Assembly (NCBI GenBank): GCA_026398485.1
Contig: JAPLST010000317.1
Location: 1 to 33,387, forward strand
DNA length: 33,387 nt
Direction of reading: 5' to 3'
Source of the DNA: a bacterium
Lineage (GTDB): Bacteria > Auribacterota > UBA3054 > JAPLST01
Below are positions 1,320-28,680 of this stretch, in pieces. The translations under genes and the position numbers were made by a program. The notes below the pieces were generated by a model, which worked only from the letters and a program-made list of their open reading frames with translations, had not been told where the DNA came from and ran no database searches. The stretch's first letter is position 1; each line of letters opens with the position of its first letter.

Positions 1320-1361
1320 TGGCGACCCCAAGGGGATTTGAACCCCTTGGGTTTGCGTCGC
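1320..1361 (-). other. tRNA 3'-terminal fragment (T-arm, acceptor 3' strand, CCA); probable prophage att core
   Basis: The minus strand reads ...CCCAAGGGGTTCAAATCCCCTTGGGGTCGCCA. This gives T-stem AGGGG/CCCCT, T-loop TTCAAAT, acceptor TGGGGTC, discriminator G and CCA. No matching 5' acceptor strand (GACCCCA) lies upstream, so it is a fragment. Confidence 0.7.
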
Positions 1362-1418
1362 AACTAGCACGGTTGCAATAGCCTGAAAATTTCTTGGAAA
1401 ATCTGCTCTAGTCCTGCT

Positions 1419-1610
1419 CTAGTTCACTTCGCGATCGTCGGCTGTAATCGCGATCCCGCACCGCGGGCATTGCTGCGGCTTGAGCACAATTTGATCGCAG
1501 TTGTAGCACATCAGCCGGATCGGCTGTTTCTTGGCCGGGCAGCCCACGGCGCCGGCACTGATGTTGCCGCCAATCTCTTGCGCGGGCAACGCTGATCTCC
1601 GTTTGCTCAC
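1419..1610 (-). CDS. small zinc-ribbon protein (63 aa)
   Basis: CYNC...CPRC pair of CxxC motifs. ATGA start/stop overlap with the upstream gene at 1607-1610. Confidence 0.55.
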   Translation of the reverse strand: MSKRRSALPAQEIGGNISAGAVGCPAKKQPIRLMCYNCDQIVLKPQQCPRCGIAITADDREVN

Positions 1611-1747
1611 ACCGTCACCACGAACGAAACGATGGCCGCACAGATAATCAGCCAGAAAATGACCTTGGCACTGCGGCAGATCATGCGCTCAAACTGCCGC
1701 TCTTCCTCTTCGCTGATGTGATTCATGGTTTTTCGTTCATTGTTCAT
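1607..1747 (-). CDS. small C-terminally membrane-anchored protein (46 aa)
   Basis: An internal ATG at 1747 forms an ATGA overlap with the DUF1353 stop. Hydrophobic C-terminus VIFWLIICAAIVSFVVTV. Confidence 0.45.
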   Translation of the reverse strand: MNNERKTMNHISEEEERQFERMICRSAKVIFWLIICAAIVSFVVTV

Positions 1748-2223
1748 CGTTCGGCGTTCATGCGCCGCCTGTTCCACACTATCCAGCCGCCCACCCTCAC
1801 GGCGCGATAGATCAGCGTCCTGGTCAGCCATCCGCAGCCAAGGGCCTTCATCGCCTCCAGAAACACGGCGTCGGCCTCAGCCCTGTAGATAACATGCGGG
1901 CCGATCTTGCGCGTCTCGTAGAGCCAGTCATGCACCACGGCGGCATCATTGTACAGCCCCGATCGAGGGAAGACTCGGCGGAACAGCCACGGCACGCTGG
2001 CCAAGTCGTGGTCAAAGCCTTTCGGCACGGTGATTATCTCGCCGCACACGCGCCGATAGACCAAGGGCTCATGCAAAATAAAGGTCGTGCCGTCCACATT
2101 CTGCATGATCAGCGGCGTGAGGAATTGCCCGGTCATCGGCTCTCCAGCGTCCTGCGGGTCAAACGCGGCGGGTTCATCATAATCTTCTGGCGGCAGGTCT
2201 TCATCGTCGTCATCGTCGGCCAT
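1744..2223 (-). CDS. DUF1353-like phage protein with an acidic N-terminus
   Basis: GFDHDLASVPWLFRRVFPRSGLYNDAAVVHDWLY matches the remembered DUF1353 pattern (F.tD.aS.P ... Y..Aa..HD.LY). ATG at 2223 is preceded by AAAGGTGAG. Confidence 0.6.
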   Translation of the reverse strand: MADDDDDEDLPPEDYDEPAAFDPQDAGEPMTGQFLTPLIMQNVDGTTFILHEPLVYRRVCGEIITVPKGFDHDLASVPWLFRRVFPRSGLYNDAAVVHDWLYETRKIGPHVIYRAEADAVFLEAMKALGCGWLTRTLIYRAVRVGGWIVWNRRRMNAER

Positions 2224-2243
2224 GCGGTGAACAGGCTCACCTT

Positions 2244-3155
2244 TCACCGCAGGAACAGGGAGTTGCGGAAGTAATCGGACACCGGGCCGTACTCGCCAAA
2301 GTAGGGGACTTGGCCGCTGCCTTTCATGGCCGCCTTGATCTTGGGCGGGTAGCTCTTCCATGTGCCGGCCGGATCACTGGCATCGACAATCGCGGTCGTG
2401 AACGTGCCGCCGCTGCCGGTCGATTGGGACGTCTCGCCATCGGCGCAGCCGCCCCAATGGATCACCTGCACCGTGCCCTCGTCCGTGCGCGGGACAAAGC
2501 CGCGCAAGACCAGCTTGGGCCGCTGCGCCGGCGGCAGGTTGCGGTAATTCGATCCGCTGTTGCAGGTGTCGGTACAGAACCACAGGCGCAGGTGCGCCGG
2601 CATCTGGCGGAGAAGCATGCCAAAGCGGTTGTCAACGTACTGGCCGTCGTACAGGCAGAGCGTCTCGGACATGCCGTCCTCTTCGCTGGGGTCAAGCGGA
2701 TCGGCAACCTGGCCGCCATGGCCACTGAAGAACACGGCCAGCAGATCGTTGCTGCCCAGCACGGCGCAGGCGTCTTTTATGGCGCGCTCGAAGTTGGCGG
2801 CCGTGGCATCTTGGTTGGTCAACACGACAATCTCGCCCGGAGCAAAGCCCGCGTCGCGGCACATCTGGGCGACCGTCTCGCCATCCACGTCCGTGTCGGG
2901 CAGGTCGCCAGGCCAGCCGCCGTAAGCGTCCGGATCCACCGATCGGCAGTAGCCGATGACGGCGCGCCGCGCGGTGCCCGTGGTCTTGATCGCGTCAATG
3001 TTGTTGGTGATCAGCCCGATCACGTCATCAACATAATTGGTGGCGTTCGCGCCAAACCAATTGCTGATGGTCGAGCATCCCGTCAGCAGGATCATCAACT
3101 GCATAGCCACCGACATTACCAATCCCATCACTACCAGTTTGCCTGTCGCTTTCAT
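2244..3155 (-). CDS. caspase-fold (peptidase C14-like) lipoprotein
   Basis: N-terminus MKATGKLVVMGLVMSVAMQLMILLTGC carries a lipobox. His motif FFSGHGG and Cys motif FCTDTCNSGS have typical C14 spacing. The internal start at 3155 was chosen for its signal peptide and SD (AGGGG). Confidence 0.7.
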   Translation of the reverse strand: MKATGKLVVMGLVMSVAMQLMILLTGCSTISNWFGANATNYVDDVIGLITNNIDAIKTTGTARRAVIGYCRSVDPDAYGGWPGDLPDTDVDGETVAQMCRDAGFAPGEIVVLTNQDATAANFERAIKDACAVLGSNDLLAVFFSGHGGQVADPLDPSEEDGMSETLCLYDGQYVDNRFGMLLRQMPAHLRLWFCTDTCNSGSNYRNLPPAQRPKLVLRGFVPRTDEGTVQVIHWGGCADGETSQSTGSGGTFTTAIVDASDPAGTWKSYPPKIKAAMKGSGQVPYFGEYGPVSDYFRNSLFLR

Positions 3156-3168
3156 ACTGCCCCTGTTT

Positions 3169-3588
3169 TTAGAAGAATGATTTGGCGCCACTTGCCATAG
3201 TGGCCAGCCAACTAAACAATCCCTGCCCAAGACTGACCGGGATACCACACATGCTGTTGATCCAGCCGCTGTTCTTGGTGTCGAGCGTGAAGCTGAATGT
3301 CTTGTTGATCCCATCGTAATTGACGGTGCGGGTCACGTCGCCAAAGCCGGAGTTGCGCACGTCGGCCATGGCGCACTCGGTCACGAGCTGCTGCATGAAG
3401 TCGCCGCCGACCAGCGCGCGCTCGCGCAGCATGATTTTGACCGGATCATTCGTGATGCTGCCCGAATTGAGCCATTGCTCGTTGGCCGTGATCCCGTGCA
3501 AACCAGAGCAGCCCGGCAGCAAAGCGAACAAGCCGATTGCCACGAAGGAGCGAATAAGCGGCAGCGCCATCTTTGGTTTGTGCATCAT
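3169..3588 (-). CDS. lipoprotein of unknown function (139 aa)
   Basis: Lipobox in FALLPGCSG. ATGA overlap with the upstream gene at 3585-3588. Confidence 0.6.
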   Translation of the reverse strand: MMHKPKMALPLIRSFVAIGLFALLPGCSGLHGITANEQWLNSGSITNDPVKIMLRERALVGGDFMQQLVTECAMADVRNSGFGDVTRTVNYDGINKTFSFTLDTKNSGWINSMCGIPVSLGQGLFSWLATMASGAKSFF

Positions 3589-3875
3589 TTTGCGCGGGAT
3601 TCAATCAGTGACCATACGCTTTGGACTACCAAGCCAATCAGCGCCGTGCTTGTGACGCACACCGCCCAGATAATAGCAGTCAGCTTTTGTTCCACAACCT
3701 GCAGGCGCGTCTGGTGGCAGGCCACGCCATTGTCAACGAACATGCGGGCATGGATGTCGTTCAACACCGACTTCATATTGTTCTGCGCGTGCTGGATGGC
3801 TTTCAGCTCCGCGCGGATTTCAACCCACAGTTCCGGGTGAAGGCATTCAACTTCGTGTTCGTCTTTCGGCGGCAT
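3585..3875 (-). CDS. tail-anchored membrane protein (96 aa) with a helical N-terminal part
   Basis: C-terminal hydrophobic helix AIIWAVCVTSTALIGLVVQSVW. The gene starts 3 nt after the upstream stop. Confidence 0.55.
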   Translation of the reverse strand: MPPKDEHEVECLHPELWVEIRAELKAIQHAQNNMKSVLNDIHARMFVDNGVACHQTRLQVVEQKLTAIIWAVCVTSTALIGLVVQSVWSLIESRAK

Positions 3876-3878
3876 AGG

Positions 3879-4697
3879 TCACGCGATTAGAATATTATCC
3901 GGCACGCCCTTGCCCTTGCGCAGCATGACGTTCGGGACGGGCCACTTCACGCCAGGTTCGATTGTCAGCCAGCCGGCGTGCTTTGCAAAGCTCTTGAGGC
4001 TGTTCTCGCAGCGCCACTGCGTCGAGATATTTATTTCGTTCAGCGACCGGCCCGGTGCGTAGTCGCACGCCATGACGGCCGACCAGAAGCATTGCGTGAA
4101 CAGCGACCGGCCGCAGGTATTCAGCGGGTGATATGGCTCGGTCAGGCCACCATCAAAATAGCCGTACGAATACTGCCGGGCGCTGCACGCGGCAACCGCC
4201 ACATCTCCCGCGTCTATCGGCTTGTAGTGCTCGTTGATTGCGGGCTCTTGCGCGCCGGCCGTCAACAGCGCGCATTTCACGCGTTGCTTGTACGTGCCAG
4301 GTGTTGCGCCAAGGGCGCGCCCGCCAAGGGTGCCGCCCGAGTAGCACGCATCATCGATCCGGATCAGATATTTGGTCGTGGCGCGCAACGGCACAAGCAC
4401 GTTGGCCATCAGCCATGCGTGCGAGATGCACGTCCCGGAGTAAAGGCCCGTCTCGATCCTGCCGTCAACCTTGCCCGCATAGCCGTGGCCGGAATAGTAG
4501 ATCAGCGCCTTGTCCGCGCCGGACAGCTTGTCCCGGACGTCCAGCCAGCCGGCCTTGCCAAACAATGGCTCTGTGTTGCAGCCGACCACAGTCCAGCCGA
4601 GTTGCTCAAGCCGCTGCTTTGACACGAGCGCGTCGGCAACCGCCTCATGCAGCCCCAAAGCCGGGCAGCCAATGATGTAGGCGCGGGCGGTCATCAC
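3879..4697 (-). CDS. caspase-fold (peptidase C14-like) protein, no signal peptide
   Basis: ALIYYSGHGYAG (His) and LIRIDDACYSGG (Cys) have typical C14 spacing. ATGA overlap with the tail-fibre stop at 4694-4697. Confidence 0.7.
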   Translation of the reverse strand: MMTARAYIIGCPALGLHEAVADALVSKQRLEQLGWTVVGCNTEPLFGKAGWLDVRDKLSGADKALIYYSGHGYAGKVDGRIETGLYSGTCISHAWLMANVLVPLRATTKYLIRIDDACYSGGTLGGRALGATPGTYKQRVKCALLTAGAQEPAINEHYKPIDAGDVAVAACSARQYSYGYFDGGLTEPYHPLNTCGRSLFTQCFWSAVMACDYAPGRSLNEINISTQWRCENSLKSFAKHAGWLTIEPGVKWPVPNVMLRKGKGVPDNILIA

Positions 4698-6043
4698 ATA
4701 CCAGGAATAATATTGAAATGATAAATGATTCTTGATAATTCAACTTTATCGTCTTGCTTTACTGCATATGTACAAGTCCACACTTGAGAATTTCCCACTG
4801 AATAAGTTGAAGGACTTAAAAATTGATTAAAGCAATTCAACTGATATGGTGTTGAGCCGTCTAATGCAAGCACATATCCATATGAATAATATTGGCTACT
4901 ATAATCAACACCATATTTTGTTGTAAGTGTATCCATTATTGCATTCCATCTATAACCACTCTGACCATCATATATAGGAGCGTTGTAACTTATATACATA
5001 TACCCATGTGCGGAGTTGTAGAAAACTTGAAAATCCACAATATTAATGTTGTATGGATATTTTGTTGATTTAACATATATATCAACAGAAGGAAGTGTAG
5101 GAGATGCATTTTGCTCTATATTGATAGGATTACACGTAACGTCAATATCTCTTACCGGAATGCCATTGCTGAGAAAATATATGTATGCTGCAGCATCAAC
5201 ATATGATTTTGTCACTGCATCGTTATTGTCGACAGGCGCGGCGACGTTCTTAATATTCACAGAGCTGGCGTCGATGTAGGCATTGCTTGTTACTCCGCTG
5301 GCGTGTGGATATAGTTTTATAACGGCAAGCTGAGCGCCAGACCCCCCGGATTCAGCTTCGATGAGATTAGTTACACCAACACCTGCTGCGGCATTGTTAA
5401 ACACCTTTCGCAACACGAAGTTGTTGCTGACGATTGCGCCAGTGATGAACTTGGCCGAGGCGACAGCGCCGGTCACAACCGCGTCGGCATAGCCCTTGGT
5501 CGCCGCGTTTTCTTTGTCCGCAGGAGTTCCAACGCTGATTGGCACATATCCGCCAGATGACCAGTTTGTCAAGTAAAACTCAGAATGGCCTGGATACTCT
5601 GCATACATTCCAATTGTGTTACCAGCAGCGGTTTTGAACATATTAGCAGCAGGTAGTATTAAACTGCCCGTCATCGTGTCGCCCGACTTCAGCACGAACT
5701 GGTTGCTGACGGTGGACAAGTCAGTTGCATTACTGGCATTGGCGGCTGTGGCAGCCCATGTGGCCGCCTGCGCATTGCTCGCGGTCGCGCTGACGTTCGC
5801 CCAGTTGGCGTTGGTTGCGCGTGCAGCCACGCTCGCCCAGCCTGCGTTGGTCGCGTAAGCAGTAGACGCAACACCAATATTTGTCGCGCTGGCCACCAGT
5901 TGGAAGTTGGTGTTGACCTGCGCCCACATGCGCAGCACGCTGGTGGTCGTGCCCCACTCAAACGGGTTGGGATTCCACACGCCGGCCGCGGCGGCGCTGC
6001 CAATAGCACACGCCGCCACGATGATCAATGCTGTCCGTTTCAT
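4694..6043 (-). CDS. tail fibre protein with a low-GC C-terminal (receptor-binding?) domain
   Basis: Fibre-type motifs LKSGDTMTGSLIL, ENAATKGYADA and NDAVTKSYVDAA. Ala/Asn/Thr-rich repeats. The Y/N-rich C-terminus is encoded by AT-rich DNA (4694-5230). The start at 6043 overlaps the upstream stop (TAATG). Confidence 0.7.
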   Translation of the reverse strand: MKRTALIIVAACAIGSAAAAGVWNPNPFEWGTTTSVLRMWAQVNTNFQLVASATNIGVASTAYATNAGWASVAARATNANWANVSATASNAQAATWAATAANASNATDLSTVSNQFVLKSGDTMTGSLILPAANMFKTAAGNTIGMYAEYPGHSEFYLTNWSSGGYVPISVGTPADKENAATKGYADAVVTGAVASAKFITGAIVSNNFVLRKVFNNAAAGVGVTNLIEAESGGSGAQLAVIKLYPHASGVTSNAYIDASSVNIKNVAAPVDNNDAVTKSYVDAAAYIYFLSNGIPVRDIDVTCNPINIEQNASPTLPSVDIYVKSTKYPYNINIVDFQVFYNSAHGYMYISYNAPIYDGQSGYRWNAIMDTLTTKYGVDYSSQYYSYGYVLALDGSTPYQLNCFNQFLSPSTYSVGNSQVWTCTYAVKQDDKVELSRIIYHFNIIPGM

Positions 6044-11923: not shown

Positions 11924-12244
11924 TTAAGATTTCCACGGATCAAACGTCCGCGGGCTGTTATCCGCCTTGGTGGTTACATGCTGCTGCCCTGCGGCCGGCA
12001 CGACCACGGTGTTTCCGTCGCCGCCCGCCTTCGGTGTCAACAGCCCTAATGCTTCGTACTCGTCCAACTTGGCAAGATTGGCCTCCATGTCGGCCAGGCT
12101 AAGCTCCTTGCCGTCGCCGGCGTTCTTGAACTGCGCCTTCACCTTGTCATCACACTGATCGACAAGTTTGATGCGCCGCTCATGGGCGGTTTTGACGCGG
12201 GTCGTATAGCGGTCCTGATAGGGCTTCAACTTCCCTTGGGGCAT
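11924..12244 (-). CDS. scaffold-like protein, distal part (frame-separated from 12180-12605)
   Basis: MPQGKLKPYQDRYTTRVKTAHERRIKLVDQ... is charged and helical. It repeats the peptide KPYQ(E/D)RYTTR found at the end of the upstream ORF. Confidence 0.5.
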   Translation of the reverse strand: MPQGKLKPYQDRYTTRVKTAHERRIKLVDQCDDKVKAQFKNAGDGKELSLADMEANLAKLDEYEALGLLTPKAGGDGNTVVVPAAGQQHVTTKADNSPRTFDPWKS

Positions 12245-12605
12245 GACCAAAACGGGTCGTATAGCGCTCCTGATAGGGCTTCACGGCGGCCAACTCGGCG
12301 TCGCGTTCCTGCAGAAGCTTCTCGTGTTCACCGCGTTTTTTTGCTTCTTCATCGTCGGCCTTCTTTTTCTCATCTGTGCGGCGTCGCTCTCCGTCCTCAA
12401 GCTGGCCAATACGCCCCGTCAGGCGTTCGTAGTCCTTCTTGGAGACCATGATGGTTTCGGCGTCGCCAGACTTATCGCCGGCAGCAGGTTCGGACGGCGT
12501 CTTCGCGGCGCCGCTCGCCCCACCGTCTTGGCTCCCGCTTGCCGCGCCACCGCCATCGGCGAAGCACAGCATCCACGGAAACATCAAGCGCATCAGGCTG
12601 TTCAT
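12180..12605 (-). CDS. scaffold-like protein, proximal part
   Basis: Highly charged coiled-coil-like sequence (DEKKKADDEEAKKRGEHEKLLQERDAELAA). The last 22 codons read out of frame through the second copy of a 55-bp duplication. Confidence 0.5.
   Translation of the reverse strand: MNSLMRLMFPWMLCFADGGGAASGSQDGGASGAAKTPSEPAAGDKSGDAETIMVSKKDYERLTGRIGQLEDGERRRTDEKKKADDEEAKKRGEHEKLLQERDAELAAVKPYQERYTTRFGHAPREVEALSGPLYDPRQNRP
12198..12283. repeat. 55-bp-offset direct duplication (31-nt cores 12198-12228 and 12253-12283, 30/31 identical)
   Basis: cgggtcgtatagcg[g/c]tcctgatagggcttca occurs twice, 55 nt apart (not a multiple of 3). Confidence 0.85.
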
Positions 12606-16138: not shown

Positions 16139-16788
16139 ACTCCGGCCAGATTGTCCGCCGTAAACAGTTTGCTGCGGTTGCCACCCGCTTCCCCACGCTC
16201 CTTGTCCAGCAGCCCGGCCAACTTGGCCCGCATCTCCAACGCGCCCAGCCGATCCCGCAACTCGATCTCGCGCACCACGTACTGCACCCCTTCCTCGCCG
16301 CGGCCTTCTACCTCTGTCCGCGTCTTGATCTTCTTGATCAGGCTCGTGTCAACCCCGAGCTCGCGCAACTCAGCCAGCGTCTTGCCGCGGTGCAGCAGGT
16401 CAAAGTCCGCCAGGTCTACCCGGAACGCCATGCGCGCCACCTCTTGCATGATCCGCTCGCGGCTGATGCCGCTCTCGTCCATCAACTCGCGCACCGCCGC
16501 CGCAATGTCAGGTTTTGTCAGGTTTTCGTTGCCAATGCTTCTGGCCGTTTTTGCCGAGTAACCCGCGGCGATCGCGGCCCGCGTCGCATTGAAATCCCGC
16601 AGGTATTCCCGCACAAACGCCTGCTGCCGCACATGCAGCAGGTCAAACGCACGCGCGTTTACGATCGGCGTGGCCACCGCCGCCACAGATGCCAGCTTCT
16701 TTCGCTTGCGGCACGCCTTCTTTTCCGGACGCGCCCCACTGACGCACCGCTTGCCGGCGCACTTAGCCACTTTCTTGCTCGTCTTCAT
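16135..16788 (-). CDS. terS: terminase small subunit (Terminase_2-like)
   Basis: QQAFVREYLRDFNATRAAIAAGYSAKTARSIGNENLTKPDIAAAV is the typical small-terminase HTH signature. The internal ATG at 16788 gives an ATGA overlap with the upstream stop. Confidence 0.85.
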   Translation of the reverse strand: MKTSKKVAKCAGKRCVSGARPEKKACRKRKKLASVAAVATPIVNARAFDLLHVRQQAFVREYLRDFNATRAAIAAGYSAKTARSIGNENLTKPDIAAAVRELMDESGISRERIMQEVARMAFRVDLADFDLLHRGKTLAELRELGVDTSLIKKIKTRTEVEGRGEEGVQYVVREIELRDRLGALEMRAKLAGLLDKERGEAGGNRSKLFTADNLAGV

Positions 16789-18380
16789 CGCAGCACCCGC
16801 GCCCTTGACCGCATTGCGTTGCGGGCCCCGGCCCGCGCGCTGTTGACTTCCTTGTCGCGCAGGCCAAGGCGCTGCCGCAACTTCAGCTCGGCCAGCGGAT
16901 TGTACTTGGCGTCGCCCAACGTGTACTGCCGCAGCCCCGTGTTCGAGTCCCAGGTCACCTGCGATGGCAGACACGTGATGTCGCCGTACACCGGCACACC
17001 CTTGATCTTCAACCGCTGCAGCGGATTGATGAACGGATCCCCTTCAACGTGCATTGCGCCGCCCCAGCGCACGTCCGACAGCATCTTGTGCAGCTCGGTC
17101 GCGTACAGGTACCCCGCGTCTTTGCGATCCTCGAACAGCGGCGCCGTCCCATCATCGTTCATGCCCTTGAACACCAATATGCCAACTTCATTATCAACCA
17201 GCGTCAGCGTGCGCTCGACGCCATGCTCGTCATAGGCGCCACCACTGTGCATTGTGCTGGCGTCCGGCGCGCCGGCACCATCACATGACCGCCAGCGCAC
17301 GTCCTTGATGTAATATGCGGTGCTTGCTGGCGGCGTCGGCAAACCGCTACCTCCAGGAAGAGGCCACTGACGATAACTTACCATTCCGGTGGCTTTTAAT
17401 GTTTCACTGTCACACGCGCTGTATTCTGTCGTGGTCTCTTTCAACCAGCCTTTCGGGTCTTCAGAATAGACAATGGCAGTGCCGCCATGAAACCCATCCT
17501 GCTGCGCAAGGAATCCTGCCAGGTACGTGGCCAAATTCTGCTTGCTGCTGTTCTGCCCCTCGATGATCACCCGGCTGTAGCACATGTCCGTCAGCGGCAC
17601 CAGTTCGCGCAGGCATAGGCCGTTGCGCCCGACGCGCAGTTCTGCCGGGTCTTCGTCATACGTCGCATATGGCGCAATCAGCAGCGTTTGCGGATCAATC
17701 CACCAGTTGCGCGCCGGATAGTACGAACACAGGATTTCGGTCAGCACGTCGGCCACCTTGGCCCCGTCGTACTCATGCCCGTTCGGATGCAGCGTCAGGC
17801 CGGCCCACAGGCTTGTGCTGGTGGCCGTGGGCACGAACGTCGCCGCCCATAAGCGCAACTGCGCCAGCGTGGCGTCATCCCAAGTGCCATACGCACTGTC
17901 GCGCCACAAAGCATACACCACGGCCGGGATCACTTCCGCCAGCGTCGGCAGTCCCTGGCTGCCAAAGTCAGTGCCGGCATTATTGAGCACGTCCTGAAGG
18001 ATGCTGCCCACCGTCCAATAGACGTTGTAGCCCGCCGCACTTAGATCGCTGGGGCAGTAGCCGTACTTGACGTGGGCGTGGCGCTTGGCCAAGTCGTTTG
18101 TCTGCGCGCTGCGCCCGTAATATGTCACTTCGCCCAGCAGGCCCCGGCAATCAACGCACTGCACCTGGCGCACGCCCGTGGCAAGATTTACCGGCGCGTG
18201 GCGGATGCGCCCGGCAAACGCGCGCCGGCTGCCATAGAACACTTCCACCCATGCCCGCGGCGTGAACGTGTCGGTCGCGTCCAGCACAAAGGCGCAGCCA
18301 ATCCCATCCGCGCTGAACGACAACTGCACGCCGCCCTTGACCGCAACCACACGGCCGTCTATTTCAACCCGCGTGCTCAT
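16785..18380 (-). CDS. tail tip/hub protein (Tal-like by position, 531 aa)
   Basis: Third gene after the tape measure, with an ATGA overlap. The call is by position. Confidence 0.45.
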   Translation of the reverse strand: MSTRVEIDGRVVAVKGGVQLSFSADGIGCAFVLDATDTFTPRAWVEVFYGSRRAFAGRIRHAPVNLATGVRQVQCVDCRGLLGEVTYYGRSAQTNDLAKRHAHVKYGYCPSDLSAAGYNVYWTVGSILQDVLNNAGTDFGSQGLPTLAEVIPAVVYALWRDSAYGTWDDATLAQLRLWAATFVPTATSTSLWAGLTLHPNGHEYDGAKVADVLTEILCSYYPARNWWIDPQTLLIAPYATYDEDPAELRVGRNGLCLRELVPLTDMCYSRVIIEGQNSSKQNLATYLAGFLAQQDGFHGGTAIVYSEDPKGWLKETTTEYSACDSETLKATGMVSYRQWPLPGGSGLPTPPASTAYYIKDVRWRSCDGAGAPDASTMHSGGAYDEHGVERTLTLVDNEVGILVFKGMNDDGTAPLFEDRKDAGYLYATELHKMLSDVRWGGAMHVEGDPFINPLQRLKIKGVPVYGDITCLPSQVTWDSNTGLRQYTLGDAKYNPLAELKLRQRLGLRDKEVNSARAGARNAMRSRARVLR

Positions 18381-19549
18381 GCGGCCTTGGTCACTCCATG
18401 CGCGGCCGCGCTCAGCTCAGACGCACCACTGGCAACATAGGCAGCCGCCCATGCGGACAGTCCATCGCCAGGAACCAGCTTGTCATTGATGTAGCCGTAT
18501 GCTGATTTTATGGCGCCATCAACAATGCCAAGTGCTTTAAGAAATTCTGACCCGAATATCCAATCGGCCCCCGCAATCTCCATCAACAGACCGCCCACGC
18601 TATGCACGGTCGCCATATTGGCCGCTTTCCATACGCCATTGGTTAGCGTCTGCTGCTCAGACAGCGCCGGCGCCGTGGCCGTCGGCGTCACGTACACCTG
18701 ATACCGCGCCGCATACGCCACATCTTCCCACGTCACAACAATCGCGTCGGTATACGTCCTGTCGCTTGCTTCAACCGTCATGGCGTCCTCGTCTTCTTCG
18801 TTGTAATCGCTGATGCTCAGCGTCAATTTCCACACCAGCCCCGCCGATGCAATCACCGGCTCCTTGGGCCGCGCCGCTTTCACCAAGGCCGTCCACGTGT
18901 CTTCAATGGTGGTTTGCGTGATCGTGCCGGCATCGGCGTCGCGGTTGCCCTTCACGATCCGCAGCGTGCCGCGCCAGCCGTTCTCTACCAGCGGCGCCAT
19001 GCGCTCGTTCATCCACCACATCACCCAGCCGGACGTGTACTCATACTCGTAGTAGGAAATGCCGATCTCGGCGCCGTTGTACATGTCAATGGCGCGATCC
19101 ACTTCGACATACCAAAACCACGTGCCGGTATAGTCCGCCATGCCATCCCGCGTCTGCGCCGGCGCCGCTGCAACCACGCGCGTTTCGCGCAGGCCCTTGA
19201 ACCGGATCAGCTTGCCCGTCAGCGCCACCATCACACTCGCCGGCTCATACGTTTCGACCAGCATCACGGTCGTGCTGCCAATGTTCACCAGCGTGCCCGT
19301 GATGTCGCCGATCTCGCTCGGCGGCAGGCACAGCTCGAAGTCCATGCCAACCTTCACGCCGGCCCCCTGGACAAAGTGCTGGTAGTTGCTGCCCGTCACC
19401 GGCATGCCATCGCCGGGAAACTCGTAAGCCGCATTCCAGCGCGCCGTGTCCTGCTGCGCGCAGACGTGCCCCAAGTAATACTCGACGCTGCTGCCCCGCG
19501 GCGTGAACAGCACGTGCGTGCCAAACAATGGATTGGGAAAGTTGCTCAT
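18377..19549 (-). CDS. distal tail protein-like (390 aa), possibly with an FN3-like insert
   Basis: Immediately follows the tape measure (TGATG overlap). The segment VEASDRTYTDAIVVTWEDVAYAARYQVYV looks FN3-like. Confidence 0.4.
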   Translation of the reverse strand: MSNFPNPLFGTHVLFTPRGSSVEYYLGHVCAQQDTARWNAAYEFPGDGMPVTGSNYQHFVQGAGVKVGMDFELCLPPSEIGDITGTLVNIGSTTVMLVETYEPASVMVALTGKLIRFKGLRETRVVAAAPAQTRDGMADYTGTWFWYVEVDRAIDMYNGAEIGISYYEYEYTSGWVMWWMNERMAPLVENGWRGTLRIVKGNRDADAGTITQTTIEDTWTALVKAARPKEPVIASAGLVWKLTLSISDYNEEDEDAMTVEASDRTYTDAIVVTWEDVAYAARYQVYVTPTATAPALSEQQTLTNGVWKAANMATVHSVGGLLMEIAGADWIFGSEFLKALGIVDGAIKSAYGYINDKLVPGDGLSAWAAAYVASGASELSAAAHGVTKAA

Positions 19550-21747
19550 CAGCCTCCTATCGCCGCAATGGCCGCGCTCATTTCCGTGAAACGTTGCGTG
19601 AGATCCCGGCCCAAGTCTTGCAGGGCCTTCACCACGTCCTTTGCTGCATCATTCACCTGGTCCGCCACTTTCGACAGGTCAGCGCCGCCATCCTTGCCTT
19701 TCTTGCTCTTCGGCTTCAGCCGCGAGTCTTTCTGCCCGCCCGACGTCTCGCCTACGATTTCACTATCATCACCGAAGACGGAATCAATCTTCGATTCTGT
19801 CTCCATTGAGATAATCTCCCTGGCAGTTGATCCCACGTCTTTGGCTTGATTTGTCACGCGGTTTACCTGCGCGTCTTCGTAGGGATCAAGCGCATTGCCT
19901 GGTTTCTGGCGCGCCCCGTACTTGGCCGCCTGACTGCCGTACTCGTCGGCTTTTTTCTGCAAAGAGTCCGCTTTCTCAAAGTCGCCACTGTCCCGCGCTT
20001 GTTGCACTTGTTCGAGCAGATTGCCCTGCTGTCGCAGTGCGCCCTGCTCTCGTTTTGCATCCCTATCGCGCGTCCGCTGCTCGGCTTTGGTGCCAGGTTC
20101 GTTCATGGCATCCCTGATTGGATCAATAAAACTCTTGATCCGGGCCAGCGCGGCCTCGTACACTTCCTTTATCTTCTTGGCCGATTCCTCCCACGCCGTC
20201 GCACCCTCCTTTTGAATGCTCAGTATTTCCTCCGCCAGCGCCTTCTTGCGCTTCTCTTCCTCCTCCCGCTTCTTCGCCGCGTCGGCCGCCTTCGCCTGGG
20301 CAGTCAGATCATCGCCCCCCTTGGGCGCCGTCGGCCCGGCGTTGCTGCCGTCCTTTATGCCAACGGCCTTGCGAAGAGCAAAACTATCATTTGTCATCCC
20401 TTCCAACTGATCCTTTGCATATTGCATCGCCGTCCCAAACTCGTCGCTGAAAGCATTGCCGAAGGCCCCTCCCGCTTCCTTTGTTCCATCCATCACCTTT
20501 TGCATTGCGGCCAAACCGGCTTTGCCAGACGCAACCATATCCTCTTTGGTCTTCTCTGTGTCAAATTTCAACTCAAGCGGAGCATCTCCAAACCACGCCC
20601 GTACCGTGTTCACTTTGTCGATTACCCACTGTAGCGCGGATTGTATGCCGAACTTCACCCCTTGAAACGCAAGAAGAAGTGCTGAGCCGATAAAATCCGC
20701 CGTGCCAGCCACCACCTTCTTTAGACCGGCAAACGAGTCCATAATTCCACGCACCATGGCCATGTCACCGGCAACAATAAAACCGATAACAGTAGATACC
20801 GTCGCCCAGATTGTTTTCACGCCAAGGGTGATGGTCTCAAACAGTACCAGCGCCCACTTCAGCACAAAACCAATTTCCCGGCCCACACCTTTCAACAGTT
20901 CCCCGATGCTGTTGATGCCCGAGTCGCCACCGCTGAATTGTTCGAGAAATCCGGCACCAAAGCTGTCCTTGGACTCGCCCCAGGCAACCATCATCTTGCG
21001 CAGGCTGCCACTGGCACTATTGGCGCTGTCCTCGGCCACCTGCGCCATGCTGGCAAAACGCTTCTTGATTGCTTCAAGGACCTCGGCCTTGGTCGCGCCG
21101 TCCTCCAGTTCTATGCCGAACTGTTTCAACCCTTTGGTTGATCCTTGCAACGCCAGCGCAATGGCCGATGCCACCTGCTCCATTTGCTTGCCTTCCGCCT
21201 TGAACCCCGCAATCGCCGGCAGCATGCGCAGGATACCGGCCGCGCTGATGTCGCCTGTCCGCGCCAGCGTCAGCGCCGTTGTCCGCATTTCATCGTCCGC
21301 CACGCCCAGGTGCGCGGATAACTCATCGATGTATTTGAACGCCGCACTCATGTCCACCGGCTGGCCAAGGCGCTGCAATGCATTGGTCAGCGCCAACACC
21401 TGCTGCTCTTCTTGCATCGCCCCGCGAATGCCGTCGATCATAATCAGTTTGAGAGCAACCACCGCAGCGCCTACCCCCAAATAGCCCTTGACCGTCGCAA
21501 GCATTCCATTCGTCAAACCAAGGAATGATCCTGTGCTCTTCTTGACCGCCTCATCTGCGGGCTTGACCGCCTCGGCTGTCTTGATTAGTTTGCCCGTGAT
21601 CACGTCATATCTTTGGCCAACCCTATTCAATTCAGCCTGCAAAGCTTGCAGAGGCTGTTGCGCACTCGTCGCCAACCGGGTGAACTCTTGCAGCGGCGCT
21701 GAGAAAGCATCACGCAGCAACAGTTCCTGTTCTATGCGTCCATCCAT
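19549..21747 (-). CDS. tail tape measure protein (732 aa)
   Basis: Long helical Ala/Lys/Glu-rich protein with a central hydrophobic block (GFVLKWALVLFETITLGVKTIWATVSTVIGFIVAG). It sits directly downstream of a G/GT chaperone pair. Confidence 0.8.
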   Translation of the reverse strand: MDGRIEQELLLRDAFSAPLQEFTRLATSAQQPLQALQAELNRVGQRYDVITGKLIKTAEAVKPADEAVKKSTGSFLGLTNGMLATVKGYLGVGAAVVALKLIMIDGIRGAMQEEQQVLALTNALQRLGQPVDMSAAFKYIDELSAHLGVADDEMRTTALTLARTGDISAAGILRMLPAIAGFKAEGKQMEQVASAIALALQGSTKGLKQFGIELEDGATKAEVLEAIKKRFASMAQVAEDSANSASGSLRKMMVAWGESKDSFGAGFLEQFSGGDSGINSIGELLKGVGREIGFVLKWALVLFETITLGVKTIWATVSTVIGFIVAGDMAMVRGIMDSFAGLKKVVAGTADFIGSALLLAFQGVKFGIQSALQWVIDKVNTVRAWFGDAPLELKFDTEKTKEDMVASGKAGLAAMQKVMDGTKEAGGAFGNAFSDEFGTAMQYAKDQLEGMTNDSFALRKAVGIKDGSNAGPTAPKGGDDLTAQAKAADAAKKREEEEKRKKALAEEILSIQKEGATAWEESAKKIKEVYEAALARIKSFIDPIRDAMNEPGTKAEQRTRDRDAKREQGALRQQGNLLEQVQQARDSGDFEKADSLQKKADEYGSQAAKYGARQKPGNALDPYEDAQVNRVTNQAKDVGSTAREIISMETESKIDSVFGDDSEIVGETSGGQKDSRLKPKSKKGKDGGADLSKVADQVNDAAKDVVKALQDLGRDLTQRFTEMSAAIAAIGG

Positions 21748-24170: not shown

Positions 24171-24458
24171 TCAACCCTGCAACCGCATCTCCAGTTGCAG
24201 CGGCTGCAGCCTGCAAATCCGCACGCGCTTGCCGCTCACCACGTCCGGACGCTTGCCGCACTCAATCAGCCGTTTGTTCTTGACCAGCTCGGTGATCCGC
24301 GGCCGCACCTTGTTCGGGTCGTGGTGCCGCAGGCGCACCATCACCTCCCGATCCGTCAGCGGGCCGCATTCCGCATACGCCTGCAGCACCTGCGCCTGCC
24401 GCGTCTTCACGTCCAGCGCGTCCCACGCCTCCAGGCTGTTCTCGTGCATCACCCTCAT
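24171..24458 (-). CDS. winged-helix DNA-binding protein (95 aa)
   Basis: VLQAYAECGPLTDREVMVRL...RPRITELVKNKRLIE. ATGA overlap with the replication-gene stop at 24455-24458. Confidence 0.5.
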   Translation of the reverse strand: MRVMHENSLEAWDALDVKTRQAQVLQAYAECGPLTDREVMVRLRHHDPNKVRPRITELVKNKRLIECGKRPDVVSGKRVRICRLQPLQLEMRLQG

Positions 24459-25360
24459 GCCGCCCCCTTGTTCCTGCATGCATCCATCTCGCGCTTGCAG
24501 TCGGCGCACACCGGCTCGTACTTTTCCCCATCGACAATCAGGCCGTGGCCTGGCTTGCCGCACACACCGCACGGCCCGCTGTACCACTCGTTGCCCGCCT
24601 CTGCGCCGGCGCCCGCCGCATACTTCACCCCGTCGCCGCTGTTCTCCCATGTCCGCACCGCCGCCCGCCAGTCCTTCATCGGCGTGTTCGCCTTGCCAAT
24701 CCGCCAGCCCCGGGCCGCGTAGTGGTCGGTGAACTTCGCCGCCATGCGCGCCGGGTCATCCCAGCCGCGTTCGCTCATGTAGCCCGTCAGCTCTGCCAGC
24801 GATGGTTGAACAAACCGTTGGGATCGTGGGCCCCCCCTGGGGGTACCTGCGCTAGCAGGTGGGGGATTCTCGATTCCGACTACGCAATCGGATACGAATA
24901 CGGATACGGGGCAAATGTTTGCATCTGCTTGCACATGCTTGCAGATGTTTGCATCTGCTTGCAGATGTTTGCAAACGTCAACCCCGGTGTGCTCGCGCCC
25001 GTACACACTCAGGCCACTGATCGTCTCGCGCCAGCACTCAACCCCCGATGGCGGCTGCGGAAACTTGGACGCCTTCGCCCGCGGCTGGTCTACCTTCGGC
25101 ACCACCATGTATCGCTTGCCGTGCTGTTCGTAACGGCGAACTGCGCCGGCCTTTTCGCACTCGGCGAGCAGACGGGCGACATCGGCATCACGTATGTCAC
25201 GGCAGGGGAATACTTCGGCTTTCAGCGCCTTGGTATACTCTTTGCGGCCAAAATCATCCAGCTTCAACAGCAAATGCACATAGAAGGTCTCCGCCGGCAG
25301 CGTCAACCCTTGAATCACATCACTGGTCAGCAGCCCGTCACGCAGCACTCTGTTCGGCAT
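24455..25360 (-). CDS. replication initiator / replisome organiser-like protein with an internal iteron array
   Basis: ATG at 25360 has GGGAGGGGG upstream. The C-terminal part PSLAELTGYMSERGWDDPARMAAKFTDHYAARGWRIGKANTPMKDWRAAVRTWEN matches a common phage replication-protein motif. The linker is encoded by tandem 10-bp repeats. Confidence 0.6.
   Translation of the reverse strand: MPNRVLRDGLLTSDVIQGLTLPAETFYVHLLLKLDDFGRKEYTKALKAEVFPCRDIRDADVARLLAECEKAGAVRRYEQHGKRYMVVPKVDQPRAKASKFPQPPSGVECWRETISGLSVYGREHTGVDVCKHLQADANICKHVQADANICPVSVFVSDCVVGIENPPPASAGTPRGGPRSQRFVQPSLAELTGYMSERGWDDPARMAAKFTDHYAARGWRIGKANTPMKDWRAAVRTWENSGDGVKYAAGAGAEAGNEWYSGPCGVCGKPGHGLIVDGEKYEPVCADCKREMDACRNKGAA
24911..24976. 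repeat. iteron-like array, six to seven tandem 10-bp units (GCAnnTGnTT); candidate replication origin
   Basis: gcaaatgttt gcatctgctt gcacatgctt gcagatgttt gcatctgctt gcagatgttt gcaaac. The 10-bp period places TTGCA on one face of the helix. Confidence 0.65.
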
Positions 25361-25880
25361 GGCCCCCTCCCAGCGCGTCAAACCACGCGGCCGTATGCCG
25401 CTCGTACTCGTCCGCATGATCCACCGTCGCGCGCTGCCGCGCACGCCAGATCTTCTCCTGCACCAACGCAGACGGCGGCGCCGCCACCTCAAAGCACAAC
25501 GTCACAAACCGCTGGCAGGCCTTAAGTACCCGCCACAGTTCCTGCGACGCCTTCGTGCGCTCGGCGCAGCCGCATTCCGCCAACTGCTGGCCCTCACCCC
25601 GGTCTTCGTTGTGCGCATCGTGGATCCGCCAGCACAACGTGCAGACCACCAGCGTGTGGCCACCCTGCGGCTTCTTGCTGCCAGCCAGCCTGGCGTCCGC
25701 CCGCCGCTTGCCTGTCGCCACATACGAGTCGCACATGCTCTGCCACGTCTTGCTGAACTTCCAGAACACCCGCTCGCCAAAGACAAAGAACTCCTCGGCC
25801 GTCTGGCGCCAGTCGCCGGCGATCTTCTTCAGCCGCCACTGCTCCTGCACATACGCATCAACTTCCGGTTTCGTCGTCAT
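25338..25880 (-). CDS. hypothetical early protein (180 aa)
   Basis: Clean ORF. TAATG overlap with the upstream gene at 25880. Confidence 0.55.
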   Translation of the reverse strand: MTTKPEVDAYVQEQWRLKKIAGDWRQTAEEFFVFGERVFWKFSKTWQSMCDSYVATGKRRADARLAGSKKPQGGHTLVVCTLCWRIHDAHNEDRGEGQQLAECGCAERTKASQELWRVLKACQRFVTLCFEVAAPPSALVQEKIWRARQRATVDHADEYERHTAAWFDALGGGHAEQSAA

Positions 25881-26347: not shown

Positions 26348-26357
26348 CTCATGCTCC

Positions 26358-26392
26358 TTACCGATTACTGATTACCGATCACCGATTACCGA
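26358..26392 (-). repeat. five tandem heptamers in the 5' leader (plus strand TTACCGA TTACTGA TTACCGA TCACCGA TTACCGA)
   Basis: Read directly from the sequence. The array lies immediately upstream of the SD/ATG of 25880-26347. Confidence 0.9.
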
Positions 26393-26463
26393 AGTAGCGC
26401 GGCAGGCAGAACGCGCCGCGCCGTTGCTCAGCCAATGGTCGTATTGTTTGCCATACTTGTCTT

Positions 26464-28252: not shown

Positions 28253-28644
28253 CGCAGCTCCTCCAGCCATTTCGCCGCCTCGGTCAAGCCCAGCAGGATC
28301 AGTCCGCCCACGTCATGCACCGTCATGGCCATTATCGAGCGCTTGTCCACCCCGTCATACAGCCGCATCAGCCTCACCAGCGCGTGCATCATCTGCGCGC
28401 GCAGCGTCGCCAGCGTCTGCGGCTTCGTGTCATAGGCCGCGTGCAGCCGATCTTCGTGCAGCTTCAGCAGCCGGTGCAATTCCTCGCGATACTGCCCGCG
28501 CAGCGACAGGTAGAACCCGACCTGCTTCTCGCTCAGGCCGTCCAGTGCGCCCATCGGCAGGTTCTCGCGCCCCGCCTCGATGTAGCTCACGCGCTTTTCG
28601 TCCCATGACGGCCGCTTCTTCTTCTGTTGCGTTTCATTCTTCAT
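28249..28644 (-). CDS. hypothetical early protein (131 aa)
   Basis: Clean ORF. The ATG at 28644 directly abuts a heptamer repeat array and has no SD. Confidence 0.5.
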   Translation of the reverse strand: MKNETQQKKKRPSWDEKRVSYIEAGRENLPMGALDGLSEKQVGFYLSLRGQYREELHRLLKLHEDRLHAAYDTKPQTLATLRAQMMHALVRLMRLYDGVDKRSIMAMTVHDVGGLILLGLTEAAKWLEELR

Positions 28645-28672
28645 ACTGAAAACCGTAAACTGAAAACTGAAA
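28645..28672 (-). repeat. four tandem heptamers in the 5' leader (plus strand ACTGAAA ACCGTAA ACTGAAA ACTGAAA)
   Basis: Read directly from the sequence. The array abuts the ATG of 28249-28644. Confidence 0.9.
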
Positions 28673-28680
28673 ACAACGCC

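Follow-up and report, generated by a model that had tools for sequence, protein, structure and literature searches.

What is the function of seven genes that directly follow a phage tail fibre gene and include two encoding caspase-fold proteins? The stretch in which they lie, a bacterial contig of 33,387 nucleotides considered here over its full length (the window), carries them as a cassette at positions 1419–4697, on the minus strand, in one orientation and with most of the genes overlapping. An earlier note, made from the sequence alone, had left open a non-canonical lysis or envelope-remodelling function, a lysogenic-conversion or exclusion module, and fibre maturation.

Borders of the cassette and lysis genes in the window

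The seven open reading frames that the earlier note had placed on the minus strand are all present, and each carries a coding signal (GC3 of 0.65–0.79). Immediately upstream lies the fibre gene (4694–6043, minus strand), which has weak Phage_T7_tail and PHROG tail matches and a GC3 of 0.47, below that of its neighbours. The proposed start/stop chaining from the fibre gene onward also holds. The fibre stop overlaps the start of the first cassette gene, cytC14, at 4694–4697 (GTGA, with an ATG next at 4694–4692); the genes for TA96 and lipo139 share an ATGA at 3585–3588, and further overlaps join DUF1353 to TM46 (1744–1747) and TM46 to ZnR (1607–1610). The other gaps measure 3, 13 and 20 nt. We found no terminator between the fibre gene and cytC14, and a promoter scan returned no strong promoter, its two 9/12 matches both lying inside the fibre gene. 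About 50 nt beyond the cassette end is a sequence resembling the 3′ half of a tRNA (T arm and acceptor end, read from the sequence; 1320–1368, minus strand), at which ARAGORN found no whole tRNA. This element is probably what remains of an att site and would mark the prophage end. The prophage runs on past the right end of the window, and the cassette is most likely its terminal part, read late.

The absence of a holin, endolysin or spanin from the window, also part of the earlier description, was borne out by Pfam searches of the 46 other open reading frames, by PHROG among the best 25 of 34 families and by searches of most of these 46 against PDB sequences. Neither TA96 nor TM46 matches a holin family. 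A disrupted gene at 28641–29090 had been considered muralytic-looking; its frame switch is real, and no profile or PDB match supports a muralytic function. No peptidoglycan hydrolase turned up in the window, which leaves any lysis pathway drawn from it incomplete.

Two caspase-fold proteins, a phospholipase and small partners

The fourth gene (2244–3155, minus strand) encodes lipoC14, a protein of 303 residues that is, as judged by profile and model, a metacaspase-type C14 protease with a caspase fold. It matches Pfam PF00656 (Peptidase_C14) with 46.6 bits against a gathering threshold of 21.4, and carries the motifs SGHGGQ (H146) and DTCNSG (C198) as well as the cysteine of GGCADG (C237), which is at least 90% conserved. 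H146, C198, D91 and D196 are invariant across 87 sequences, and an Arg/Lys preference is expected because two acidic S1 positions are conserved. The AlphaFold (AF2) model (pLDDT 82.6) has GSU0716 (PDB 3BIJ) as its best Foldseek match (2.4e-19), followed by AtMC9, Yca1 and TbMCA2, and the family profile finds 3BIJ at 8.6e-95 and yeast Yca1 at 3.8e-28. Its signal, MKATGKLVVMGLVMSVAMQLMILLTG followed directly by Cys, ends in a textbook lipobox (LLTG, then C-S), and a lipobox is present in most family members. The earlier proposal of a second C14-like protein that is itself a lipoprotein is thus upheld by profile, fold and lipobox. We predict lipoC14 to be exported, anchored in the outer membrane and facing the periplasm. 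No match to lipoC14 was present in 50,697 GenBank phage records, and we found neither a metacaspase lipoprotein encoded by a phage nor the pairing of such a C14 protease with a phospholipase described in the literature.

The product of cytC14 (3879–4697, minus strand; 272 residues), described earlier as a cytoplasmic C14-like protein, has no signal and is predicted to be cytoplasmic. It matches PF00656 with 26.7 bits, above the same threshold, contains YYSGHG (H71) and DDACYSG (C118), and gives an AF2 model (pLDDT 77.4, pTM 0.81) closest by Foldseek to MALT1 (1.7e-9), then to caspases and metacaspase-9. All 16 homologues keep H71, G72, D116, C118 and S198. Pfam, modelling and Foldseek uphold the fold in both C14 proteins, each with an invariant His/Cys dyad. 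The family is very rare (3 matches in 5.8 billion proteins; 26 in 1.84 billion representatives), and in all its few relatives the gene follows a fibre gene. We regard it as accessory, perhaps with a separate role.

The cassette also encodes, by sequence, a member of a characterized phospholipase A2 (PLA2) family with the catalytic residues kept (DUF1353; 1744–2223, minus strand). The family assignment of the earlier note stands (PF07087, 92.5 bits on the frame 1744–2361), and its start at 2361 gives way to the ATG at 2223 as the most likely one, yielding 159 residues that begin with an acidic tail (MADDDDDEDL...) and include no signal peptide. PHROG 1158, labelled 'tail assembly chaperone', matches at 1.5e-36. 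Among 40 sequences D73, H98 and D99 never vary, and 39 of them have D118; the catalytic-type residues are H98-D99 and D118. The founding member of the family, TtaP, is a proven phospholipase A2, as established by assay, lipid data and a D85A mutant, and its expression is not overtly harmful to S. Typhi (PMC11525133).

Four small proteins complete the cassette. TA96 (3585–3875, minus strand; 96 residues) has a helical N-terminal part, a single C-terminal transmembrane domain (TMD; about residues 64–90) supported by hydropathy, and a short basic tail; it has no Pfam or PHROG match, its topology is wrong for an i-spanin, and its candidate roles are those of a holin, an anchor or a regulator. The predicted lipoprotein lipo139 (3169–3588, minus strand; 139 residues) ends its signal in LLPG before Cys, with Ser at +2. 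The unusual Pro at −2 is kept in a homologue 35% identical to it (FLPGC, in L123), and the two lipoproteins of the earlier note both read as such; Pfam, PHROG and NCBIfam gave no match for lipo139. TM46 (1607–1747, minus strand), a 46-residue peptide with a C-terminal TMD by hydropathy, had no match in Pfam, PHROG, PADLOC or NCBIfam, and ZnR (1419–1610, minus strand), a 63-residue CxxC...CxxC zinc ribbon (CYNC...CPRC), had sub-threshold zinc-ribbon matches only. Both are peripheral and probably accessory rather than core, because neither follows DUF1353 in the relative L130.

Gene neighbourhoods in relatives and cultured phages

In roughly nine independent phage lineages, a C14 gene and a phospholipase gene are no more than about 2 kb apart, and all 17 phospholipase matches in the ±10 kb C14 loci fall within that distance; the combination recurs in many uncultured phages. 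The adjacent partners are of three unrelated types: DUF1353 (L001, L002, L004–8, L010, L014, L037, L114 and L130), a Phospholip_A2_3-like protein recognized by a sub-threshold match and a CLRHDFDW motif (L034–36 and L038), and patatin (L003, 3e-27; L020, 6e-25). The usual companions are a tail-anchored membrane protein and a small lipoprotein. TA96 homologues lie directly 3′ of lipoC14 in L034, L035, L036 and L038, analogous tail-anchored proteins flank C14 in L001, L002, L011 and L114, and in L115 a transmembrane region is fused to C14; a different small lipoprotein occupies the equivalent position in L001, L002, L114 and L003. The set of components stays the same although single members are exchanged: lipo139 and DUF1353 of L130 are 82% and 79% identical to the window proteins and C14 only 45%, and the pattern in L129 is the converse (lipo139, 57%). 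The recurring core is C14, tail-anchored protein, lipoprotein and phospholipase. The chaining is real, but a seven-gene unit, as first described, overstates what recurs. The order fibre-cytC14-TA-lipoprotein recurs in L123 and L124.

The module lies just upstream of the terminase region in L115 and L020. Lambdoid phages carry their lysis genes just upstream of the terminase region. In Mu-like relatives (L003, the L004 group and L010) it sits moron-like among head and tail genes, with no recognisable lysis genes beside it among the families listed.

In seven of ten cultured-phage contexts, DUF1353 has a gene annotated as endolysin, holin or spanin no more than three genes away. The orders are endolysin-endolysin-holin-Rz-DUF1353 in Segz_1, lysin-holin-hypothetical-i/o-spanin-DUF1353 in IME207, endolysin-hypothetical-DUF1353-holin in phiRTG5, DUF1353-Peptidase M15 and DUF1353-amidase in prophages of H. 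pullorum and H. salomonis, respectively, DUF1353-hypothetical-amidase in Fnu1, and DUF1353-hypothetical-hypothetical-holin-lytic transglycosylase in an Aquificae virus. A large Campylobacter phage has the gene among replication genes, and 17 further viral contigs carry DUF1353 without C14.

Competing readings and comparison with known systems

With moderate confidence, we read the cassette as a late, lysis-associated, envelope-degrading module of unusual composition. Of the options left open earlier, it is the non-canonical lysis or envelope function that the PLA2 family, the lysis-cassette neighbours and the C14–phospholipase linkage favour. What follows on when and where the products act, on their substrates and on a part in lysis is our inference. 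Late in infection, transcription would run on from the fibre gene into the cassette; the protease and the lipoprotein would be exported and held in the periplasm while the PLA2 builds up in the cytoplasm. The inner membrane would then be breached, the only holin-like candidates being the tail-anchored TA96 and/or TM46, and the PLA2 would gain access to the membrane leaflets and hydrolyse phospholipids. The Arg/Lys-directed protease could cut envelope proteins (for example, outer-membrane tethers) or process a partner, and the joint weakening of the membranes would be an enzymatic counterpart of spanins or disruptins. Spanins are missing from about 15% of the phages that infect Gram-negative hosts (bioRxiv 10.1101/515445; PMC5707550).

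Exclusion or conversion is a possible but less likely reading: a superinfection-exclusion, receptor-masking or lysogenic-conversion module whose envelope remodelling blocks incoming phages or the sticking of progeny to debris. The last block before the att remnant, directly after the fibre gene, is a classic moron or exclusion position, and the cassette has two predicted lipoproteins; T5 Llp and phi80/N15 Cor are exclusion-type lipoproteins whose genes adjoin receptor-binding genes, but in PHROG none of the products resembles Llp, Cor or another exclusion family. The module resembles an insertion in the late operon of the Mu-like relatives, and a divergent C14 allele between neighbours about 80% identical is what diversifying selection on a host-interacting protein would produce. 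Yet coupling to the fibre stop, with no strong promoter and no intervening terminator, argues for late rather than lysogenic expression. A protease with a phospholipase makes a destructive pair, and the tie of DUF1353 to lysis genes extends to IME207 and Segz_1, phages isolated from sewage and seawater.

That cytC14 matures the fibre and DUF1353 acts as a tail assembly chaperone or a virion lipase for outer-membrane entry is improbable. The PHROG label would fit, but gene position alone may account for it; the founder of the family is an enzyme (PMC11525133), and in the seven cultured phages DUF1353 accompanies lysis genes, not fibre genes. The overlap of cytC14 with the fibre stop, shared by the window, L123 and L124, and the location of the module within or after the tail genes in L001 and L002 speak for a virion role, as does the capsid PLA2 of some viruses, parvovirus VP1u being one. 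However, lipoC14 and lipo139 carry lipoprotein signals and would leave the cytoplasm, where tails are assembled; fibre maturation is thus unlikely for the exported lipoproteins and possible for the cytoplasmic C14 only. We give very little credence to a defence, abortive-infection or toxin module akin to the caspase-like proteases of gasdermin, CHAT or Craspase systems. Clan CD proteases are common in bacterial defence and defence genes often sit at prophage ends, but many unrelated phages carry the module inside their late operons, and its translation is coupled to that of a structural gene. PADLOC returned one weak generic 'caspase' match (1.8e-5) and nothing for the other six proteins, and NCBIfam caspase_w_EACC1 scored 16–17 bits against a cutoff of 140. 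We found no gasdermin or CRISPR partner, in agreement with the earlier note, and no NLR or other one either. Bacterial operons that join a gasdermin to caspase-like or CHAT proteases do pair a clan CD protease with a membrane-active partner, with membrane damage as the outcome; here no gasdermin-fold gene is present, the partner is enzymatic (PLA2 or patatin) and not a pore-former, and the setting is among phage late genes instead of a defence island.

The envelope-degrading reading invites comparison at the level of single proteins and of whole cassettes. GSU0716 and the metacaspases Yca1 (fungal), AtMC4/9 (plant) and TbMCA2 (trypanosome) share with lipoC14 the fold, the motifs SGHGGQ..D..GDE.DG.DET and D-x-C-x-SG and the acidic S1 pair, whereas lipoC14 is a virus-encoded lipoprotein linked to a phospholipase and lacks both the p10 linker and the Ca-regulated insertions that type II metacaspases have. 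TtaP (STY1887/t1110), from the Salmonella typhoid-toxin islet, shares with the window DUF1353 protein the Pfam family, the H-D...D pattern, the lack of a signal peptide and a genomic tie to phage-derived envelope-breaching functions (PMC11525133), the islet also encoding the phage-type muramidase TtsA; it differs in being 125 residues long, chromosomal and toxin-associated, with neither the acidic tail nor a protease or lipoprotein partner. The holin-endolysin-Rz/Rz1 cassettes of the Salmonella phages Segz_1 and IME207 end with DUF1353, which they have in common with the window cassette. Canonical Gram-negative lysis cassettes are likewise compact sets of co-oriented, overlapping late genes for small membrane proteins, a lipoprotein and envelope-degrading enzymes, but the window cassette has no recognisable endolysin, holin or spanin, its TMDs are C-terminal rather than N-terminal, and it has two caspase-fold proteases, a feature of no described lysis cassette to our knowledge. 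In mycobacteriophage LysB, a mycolyl-arabinogalactan esterase, and the phiKT gp28 'disruptin', a lipid-directed enzyme or agent whose gene lies in the lysis region replaces membrane-fusing spanins, as we propose for the window cassette; LysB (cutinase-like) and gp28 (a cationic peptide) have unrelated folds and act with no protease component.

Position of the cassette in the prophage

The prophage genes in the window run on the minus strand, from regulatory and replication genes at 22-32 kb (a CII-like protein, HTH proteins, VRR-NUC and replication-initiator PHROGs) through head and packaging genes (TerS, TerL, portal, minor head and major head) to a late-region end that comprises a tail-tube-family match, a fibre gene (about 4694-6043) and the seven cassette genes (1419-4697). 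All seven ORFs and the four 4-nt overlaps quoted in the earlier note (4694-4697, 3585-3588, 1744-1747 and 1607-1610) are real when read from the sequence; the remaining cassette junctions are 3-20 nt, and GC3 is 0.65-0.79 in each of the seven chosen frames. We found no terminator-like site between the fibre gene and the cassette, and the only promoter-like sites upstream on the same strand are two weak ones (9/12 matches), both within the fibre gene. We regard the coupling of the cassette to the late operon as established.

About 50 nt past the last cassette stop, at 1320-1368 on the minus strand, lies a sequence resembling the 3' half of a tRNA (T arm and acceptor end), AAGGGGTTCAAATCCCCTT followed by GGGGTCGCCA. 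It is probably an att remnant that marks the prophage end, and on this reading the cassette is the prophage's last block. ARAGORN called no whole tRNA at this site or elsewhere in the window, and a search within the window for an att direct repeat found none. A second fragment, GGTTCAAATC-like, is located about 250 nt farther out (about 1040-1100). Beyond the prophage, the low-GC flank carries two sigma-70 promoters on the minus strand (235-263 and 772-800): one is a full 12/12 fit to the consensus and has an extended -10 TG, the other is an 11/12 fit. One of the two sits upstream of an ORF (544-732) for a 62-aa protein with a single transmembrane domain (TMD).

Several features elsewhere in the prophage deserve record. 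GC3 of the fibre gene (4694-6043) is 0.47, as against 0.65-0.86 in the genes on either side, which suggests that the fibre was recently acquired through recombination. In the scaffold/head region, ORFs 11924-12250 and 12180-12605 overlap, and a 31-nt direct repeat (97% identical; 12198-12228 and 12253-12283) extends across the overlap. KPYQxRYTTR is encoded in each of the two ORFs, and the repeat may have arisen by duplication or mark a site of recoding. The late-gene order is unusual in that a block upstream of the terminase genes (16785-21747), with a 732-aa ORF that is tape-measure-like by eye only and two large ORFs of 390 and 531 aa, stands apart from the tube and fibre genes; none of the three has a Pfam or PHROG match. 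Within ORF 24455-25492 the 10-nt unit GCAnATGyTT recurs periodically, about six times (24911-24970), and these copies resemble replication-origin iterons inside an initiator gene. ACCGTATACC-type repeat arrays between early genes (26352-26401, 28608-28660, 29627-29676 and 30098-30147) are probably operator or regulator binding sites.

Two caspase-fold proteases and a putative phospholipase A2

The earlier note had recognized two C14-like proteins by eye, and profile and structure searches bear out both. The lipoprotein lipoC14 (2244-3155) passes Pfam PF00656 (Peptidase_C14) with 46.6 bits against a gathering score of 21.4. Its AF2 model (pLDDT 82.6) has the caspase/hemoglobinase fold, with Geobacter GSU0716 (3BIJ) as the top Foldseek match (2.4e-19; TM 0.65-0.74), followed by Arabidopsis, yeast, Candida and Trypanosoma metacaspases. 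A profile of its family matches Yca1 at 3.8e-28, over the SGHGGQ..D..GDE.DG.DE and D-x-C-x-SG motifs, and TbMCA2 at 2.5e-18. The catalytic dyad, H146 (SGHGGQ) and C198 (DTCNSG), is invariant in 87 sequences, nearly all of them metagenomic and most starting with a lipoprotein signal (L-x-G-C). Because Pfam, fold, profile and motif matches agree, we assign lipoC14 as a putative metacaspase/orthocaspase-type enzyme. D91 and D196, likewise invariant in the 87 sequences, line up with the ND and DxC positions of metacaspases; they may be the counterparts of TbMCA2 Asp95 and Asp211, which form an acidic S1 pocket with Arg/Lys specificity. From the conservation of these acidic positions we infer a preference of lipoC14 for Arg/Lys. 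At least 90% of the 87 sequences keep C237, which is invariant in a 31-sequence alignment. In P0087, a distant homologue, the C14 domain is fused to two PG_binding_1 domains, a weak hint at a wall-associated role.

The signal-less protein cytC14 (3879-4697) also passes PF00656 (26.7 bits versus 21.4). Its model (pLDDT 77, pTM 0.81), in which loop 121-158 is of low confidence, matches MALT1 at 1.7e-9 and then caspases in Foldseek, as well as metacaspase-9 and legumains; H71 and C118, its His/Cys dyad, are invariant in 16 homologues. The family is very rare, with three matches in 5.8 billion proteins and 26 in 1.84 billion representatives; we found none in IMG/VR, and an exact protein look-up returned no record. 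Neither protease has a relative, near-identical or at the protein level, in 50,697 GenBank phage records, and in BFVD giant-virus caspases are essentially the sole matches to the protease fold.

The DUF1353 protein (1744-2223) passes Pfam PF07087 with 92.5 bits (gathering score 22.5), as the earlier note had proposed. The 125-aa Salmonella protein TtaP, which consists of DUF1353, is a phospholipase A2 (PLA2) with catalytic residues H70, D71 and D85, as a 2024 study of the typhoid-toxin islet demonstrated with an enzyme assay, an analysis of lipids and a D85A mutant; its authors proposed PLA2 activity for other DUF1353 proteins and noted that prophages encode TtaP-like proteins (PMC11525133). 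An alignment of 40 phage DUF1353 proteins shows D73, H98 and D99 without exception and D118 in 39 of them. Compared by residue pattern, the window protein thus keeps the His, the adjacent Asp and the downstream Asp of TtaP, with a catalytic spacing of 20 residues rather than 15. It lacks a signal peptide and has an acidic N-terminal tail that is conserved in a close relative of the cassette (L130). Its Pfam match and catalytic-type residues make it a putative TtaP-type PLA2.

The same protein is a member of PHROG 1158 (1.5e-36), labelled "tail assembly chaperone", and a tblastn search found DUF1353 in 211 phage records, usually under that label or as hypothetical. In 7 of 10 contexts inspected, however, DUF1353 lies at most three genes from an annotated lysis gene, which makes the label look positional. 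The gene order is endolysin-endolysin-holin-Rz-DUF1353 in Segz_1 (L117), lysin-holin-hypothetical-i/o-spanin-DUF1353 in IME207 (L125) and endolysin-hypothetical-DUF1353-holin in phiRTG5 (L118). DUF1353 precedes Peptidase M15 in a H. pullorum prophage, an amidase in a H. salomonis prophage, a hypothetical gene and an amidase in Fnu1, and two hypothetical genes, a holin and a lytic transglycosylase in an Aquificae virus. Its neighbours in GX15bay and CJIE4-3 are nearly all hypothetical and uninformative, and in Campylobacter NCTC12673 it sits amid replication genes. We consider the link of DUF1353 to lysis cassettes established. The chaperone label is probably wrong: it is not in itself functional evidence, and neither the lysis-cassette setting nor the fact that TtaP is a PLA2 agrees with it. 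For the phage DUF1353 genes of Segz_1, IME207, phiRTG5 and other GenBank records it is probably a propagated misannotation. In one DUF1353 protein, L014:8929-9564, the DxASxP and HD motifs are separated by a hydrophobic insert of about 55 aa with three predicted TMDs; this protein would be a membrane-embedded phospholipase variant.

Recurrence of the protease-phospholipase pair

We gathered comparison loci (L numbers; phages, prophages and metagenomic contigs) from IMG/VR, GTDB genomes, JGI metagenomes and exact-protein look-ups and searched their ORFs with jackhmmer. The source genome is not among 185,579 species representatives, where the best matches were MAG contigs at 41-44% identity. Among the comparison loci, the C14 gene adjoins a phospholipase of one of three unrelated types. 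DUF1353 lies beside C14 in L001, L002, L004-L008, L010, L014, L037, L114 and L130. In L034, L035, L036 and L038 its place is taken by 130-140-aa proteins with an invariant CLRHDFDW, whose matches to Pfam Phospholip_A2_3 (the SvPLA2 family) are sub-threshold (E 0.004-0.12) and always cover the catalytic segment; L003 (3e-27) and L020 (6e-25, itself a lipoprotein) have patatin-like proteins. All 17 phospholipase matches fall within about 2 kb of the C14 gene in loci of +/-10 kb, and they represent about nine independent lineages. We regard the repeated protease-lipase synteny as established. That non-orthologous lipases replace one another beside C14 is an argument for joint action of the two enzymes.

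Two further partners recur. One, helical in its N-terminal part, has a C-terminal TMD and is exemplified in homologues of the tail-anchored cassette protein TA96 (3585-3875) in L034-38, in 184-223-aa proteins of L001, L002 and L114, in a 96-aa protein of L011 and, fused to C14, in L115. The other is a small lipoprotein, either lipo139 (3169-3588) or a member of an unrelated family with VAEFDSR...LFDMIAKLKVR. Close relatives of the cassette are mosaics in which parts are swapped and the composition is kept: identity to the window is 82% for lipo139, 79% for DUF1353 and 45% for C14 in L130, and 57% for lipo139, 72% for TA96 and 93% for C14 in L129. The seven-gene unit of the earlier note holds as a set of real genes and less well as a unit, as the 46-aa TMD peptide TM46 (1607-1747) and the zinc ribbon ZnR (1419-1610) are absent from L130; we treat both as peripheral. 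The position beside a fibre gene is also shared only in part. The module follows tail or fibre genes in the window, L002 and L123, but lies inside the tail genes in L001, just upstream of the terminase region in L115 and L020, and between head and tail genes in Mu-like phages (L003 and the L004 group).

In some loci a thioredoxin-like domain is part of the C14 protein or is encoded beside it. In one phage lineage (L004-L008 and L037) it is a CxxC domain that separates the lipobox from the C14 domain; in another it forms a gene of its own just upstream of C14 (L114:8431-8910). The cysteine-rich periplasmic protease may therefore be under redox control. L011:6166-6945, which immediately precedes the gene of a signal-less C14 protein, encodes a 259-aa protein with papain/CHAP-like Cys and His motifs (GYCWTW...WWGHAL) and no Pfam match, which may be a cysteine peptidase partner. 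Protease and phospholipase are predicted in opposite compartments in the window, L001-L003, L020, L034-38 and L114. We dropped the rule that they always are, as in a zymogen/activator separation, since neither has a signal peptide in L010 and L014, even if the phospholipase of L014 has its three-TMD insert.

Lysis genes and candidate roles of the cassette

In agreement with the earlier note, Pfam, PHROGs and PDB-sequence searches of limited sensitivity revealed no recognizable holin, endolysin or spanin in the window, past whose right end the prophage runs. None of the 46 other ORFs of the window matched a Pfam family of lysozymes, amidases, peptidases, SLTs, holins or spanins at E <= 0.01, and Pfam and PHROGs found no lysozyme, amidase, peptidase or SLT family among the seven cassette proteins. 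No PHROGs lysis family was among the best 25 of 34 families in the window, and no endolysin family among the best 25 of 31 families for 118 same-strand C14 neighbours from 12 related loci. Comparison of concatenated ORFs with PDB sequences gave no hidden endolysin in most of the 46 other ORFs, and jackhmmer searches with 14 lysis proteins of cultured phages, including the Segz_1 and IME207 spanins, found nothing in all loci and the window; both searches have limited sensitivity.

The one ORF that the earlier note had called muralytic-looking (28641-29090) does switch frame near 28935. Its proposed role did not survive: neither the pieces nor the re-joined product has a Pfam match, and the re-joined product has no NCBIfam or PDB match. 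It has a signal-like N-terminus and an IRWVES motif and is either a pseudogene or an assembly error.

A canonical phage lysis cassette has a holin, which is a small TMD protein that triggers membrane permeabilization, and an endolysin, together with either an i-spanin with an N-terminal TMD and a small o-spanin lipoprotein or a u-spanin; no endolysin or spanin is recognizable in our cassette. TA96 and TM46 are small single-TMD proteins with no holin-family match in Pfam or PHROGs. The TMD of TA96 is C-terminal and lipo139 is a lipoprotein with no Rz1-family match in PHROGs; topology rules the two out as a two-component spanin.

Enzyme families, catalytic residues and export signals are established, and several roles could be built on them. 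The most likely, to which we give about an even chance, is a late, lysis-associated envelope-attack cassette. TA96 or TM46 would supply a membrane lesion, permeabilization of the inner membrane would let the PLA2 reach the membranes, and the outer-membrane-tethered protease would cut envelope proteins or a partner. Exclusion or lysogenic conversion is an unlikely role, and a function as virion or fibre factors, conceivable mainly for cytC14, is less likely still. Least probable is a defence module: PADLOC gave a weak generic caspase match, but nothing for the cassette partners, and the absence of a gasdermin partner reported in the earlier note is upheld by Pfam. As neither a gasdermin-fold pore-former nor other PADLOC components were found beside the proteases, we reject membership of a defence system.

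A bolder form of the envelope-attack reading is that the membrane-tethered metacaspase and the phospholipase, with the tail-anchored protein and the lipoprotein, constitute a new enzymatic class of phage lysis effector, which we advance only tentatively. The pair would disrupt the outer membrane in place of spanins, and might stand in for the endolysin as well, with envelope tethers or stem peptides proteolysed and membrane lipids hydrolysed. As an alternative, mixing of the compartments might let the protease switch on the lipase or a holin-like partner. Literature searches turned up no earlier description of a metacaspase lipoprotein from a phage, of a module that pairs a protease with a phospholipase or of DUF1353 genes as part of lysis cassettes, and none of phage lysis genes for metacaspases, orthocaspases or phospholipases. 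A spanin is unidentifiable in about one in seven phages of Gram-negative hosts, where outer-membrane opening is largely unexplained (bioRxiv 10.1101/515445; PMC5707550). Because accessory lysis factors keep being added, recently disruptin, Lcc6 and LysZ, a new enzymatic variant would fit this open question, and the recurrent protease-phospholipase module at late/lysis positions is a concrete, testable candidate for it. A caspase-family protease would thereby enter phage-induced cell death, and enzymes active on Gram-negative envelopes from within or without would be of possible interest as lytic agents. The module also places DUF1353, and with it the so far unexplained TtaP gene of Salmonella, in a biological setting: in the typhoid-toxin islet, TtaP and TtsA, a phage-type muramidase, share one islet, which is the enzyme pairing of phage DUF1353 lysis cassettes.
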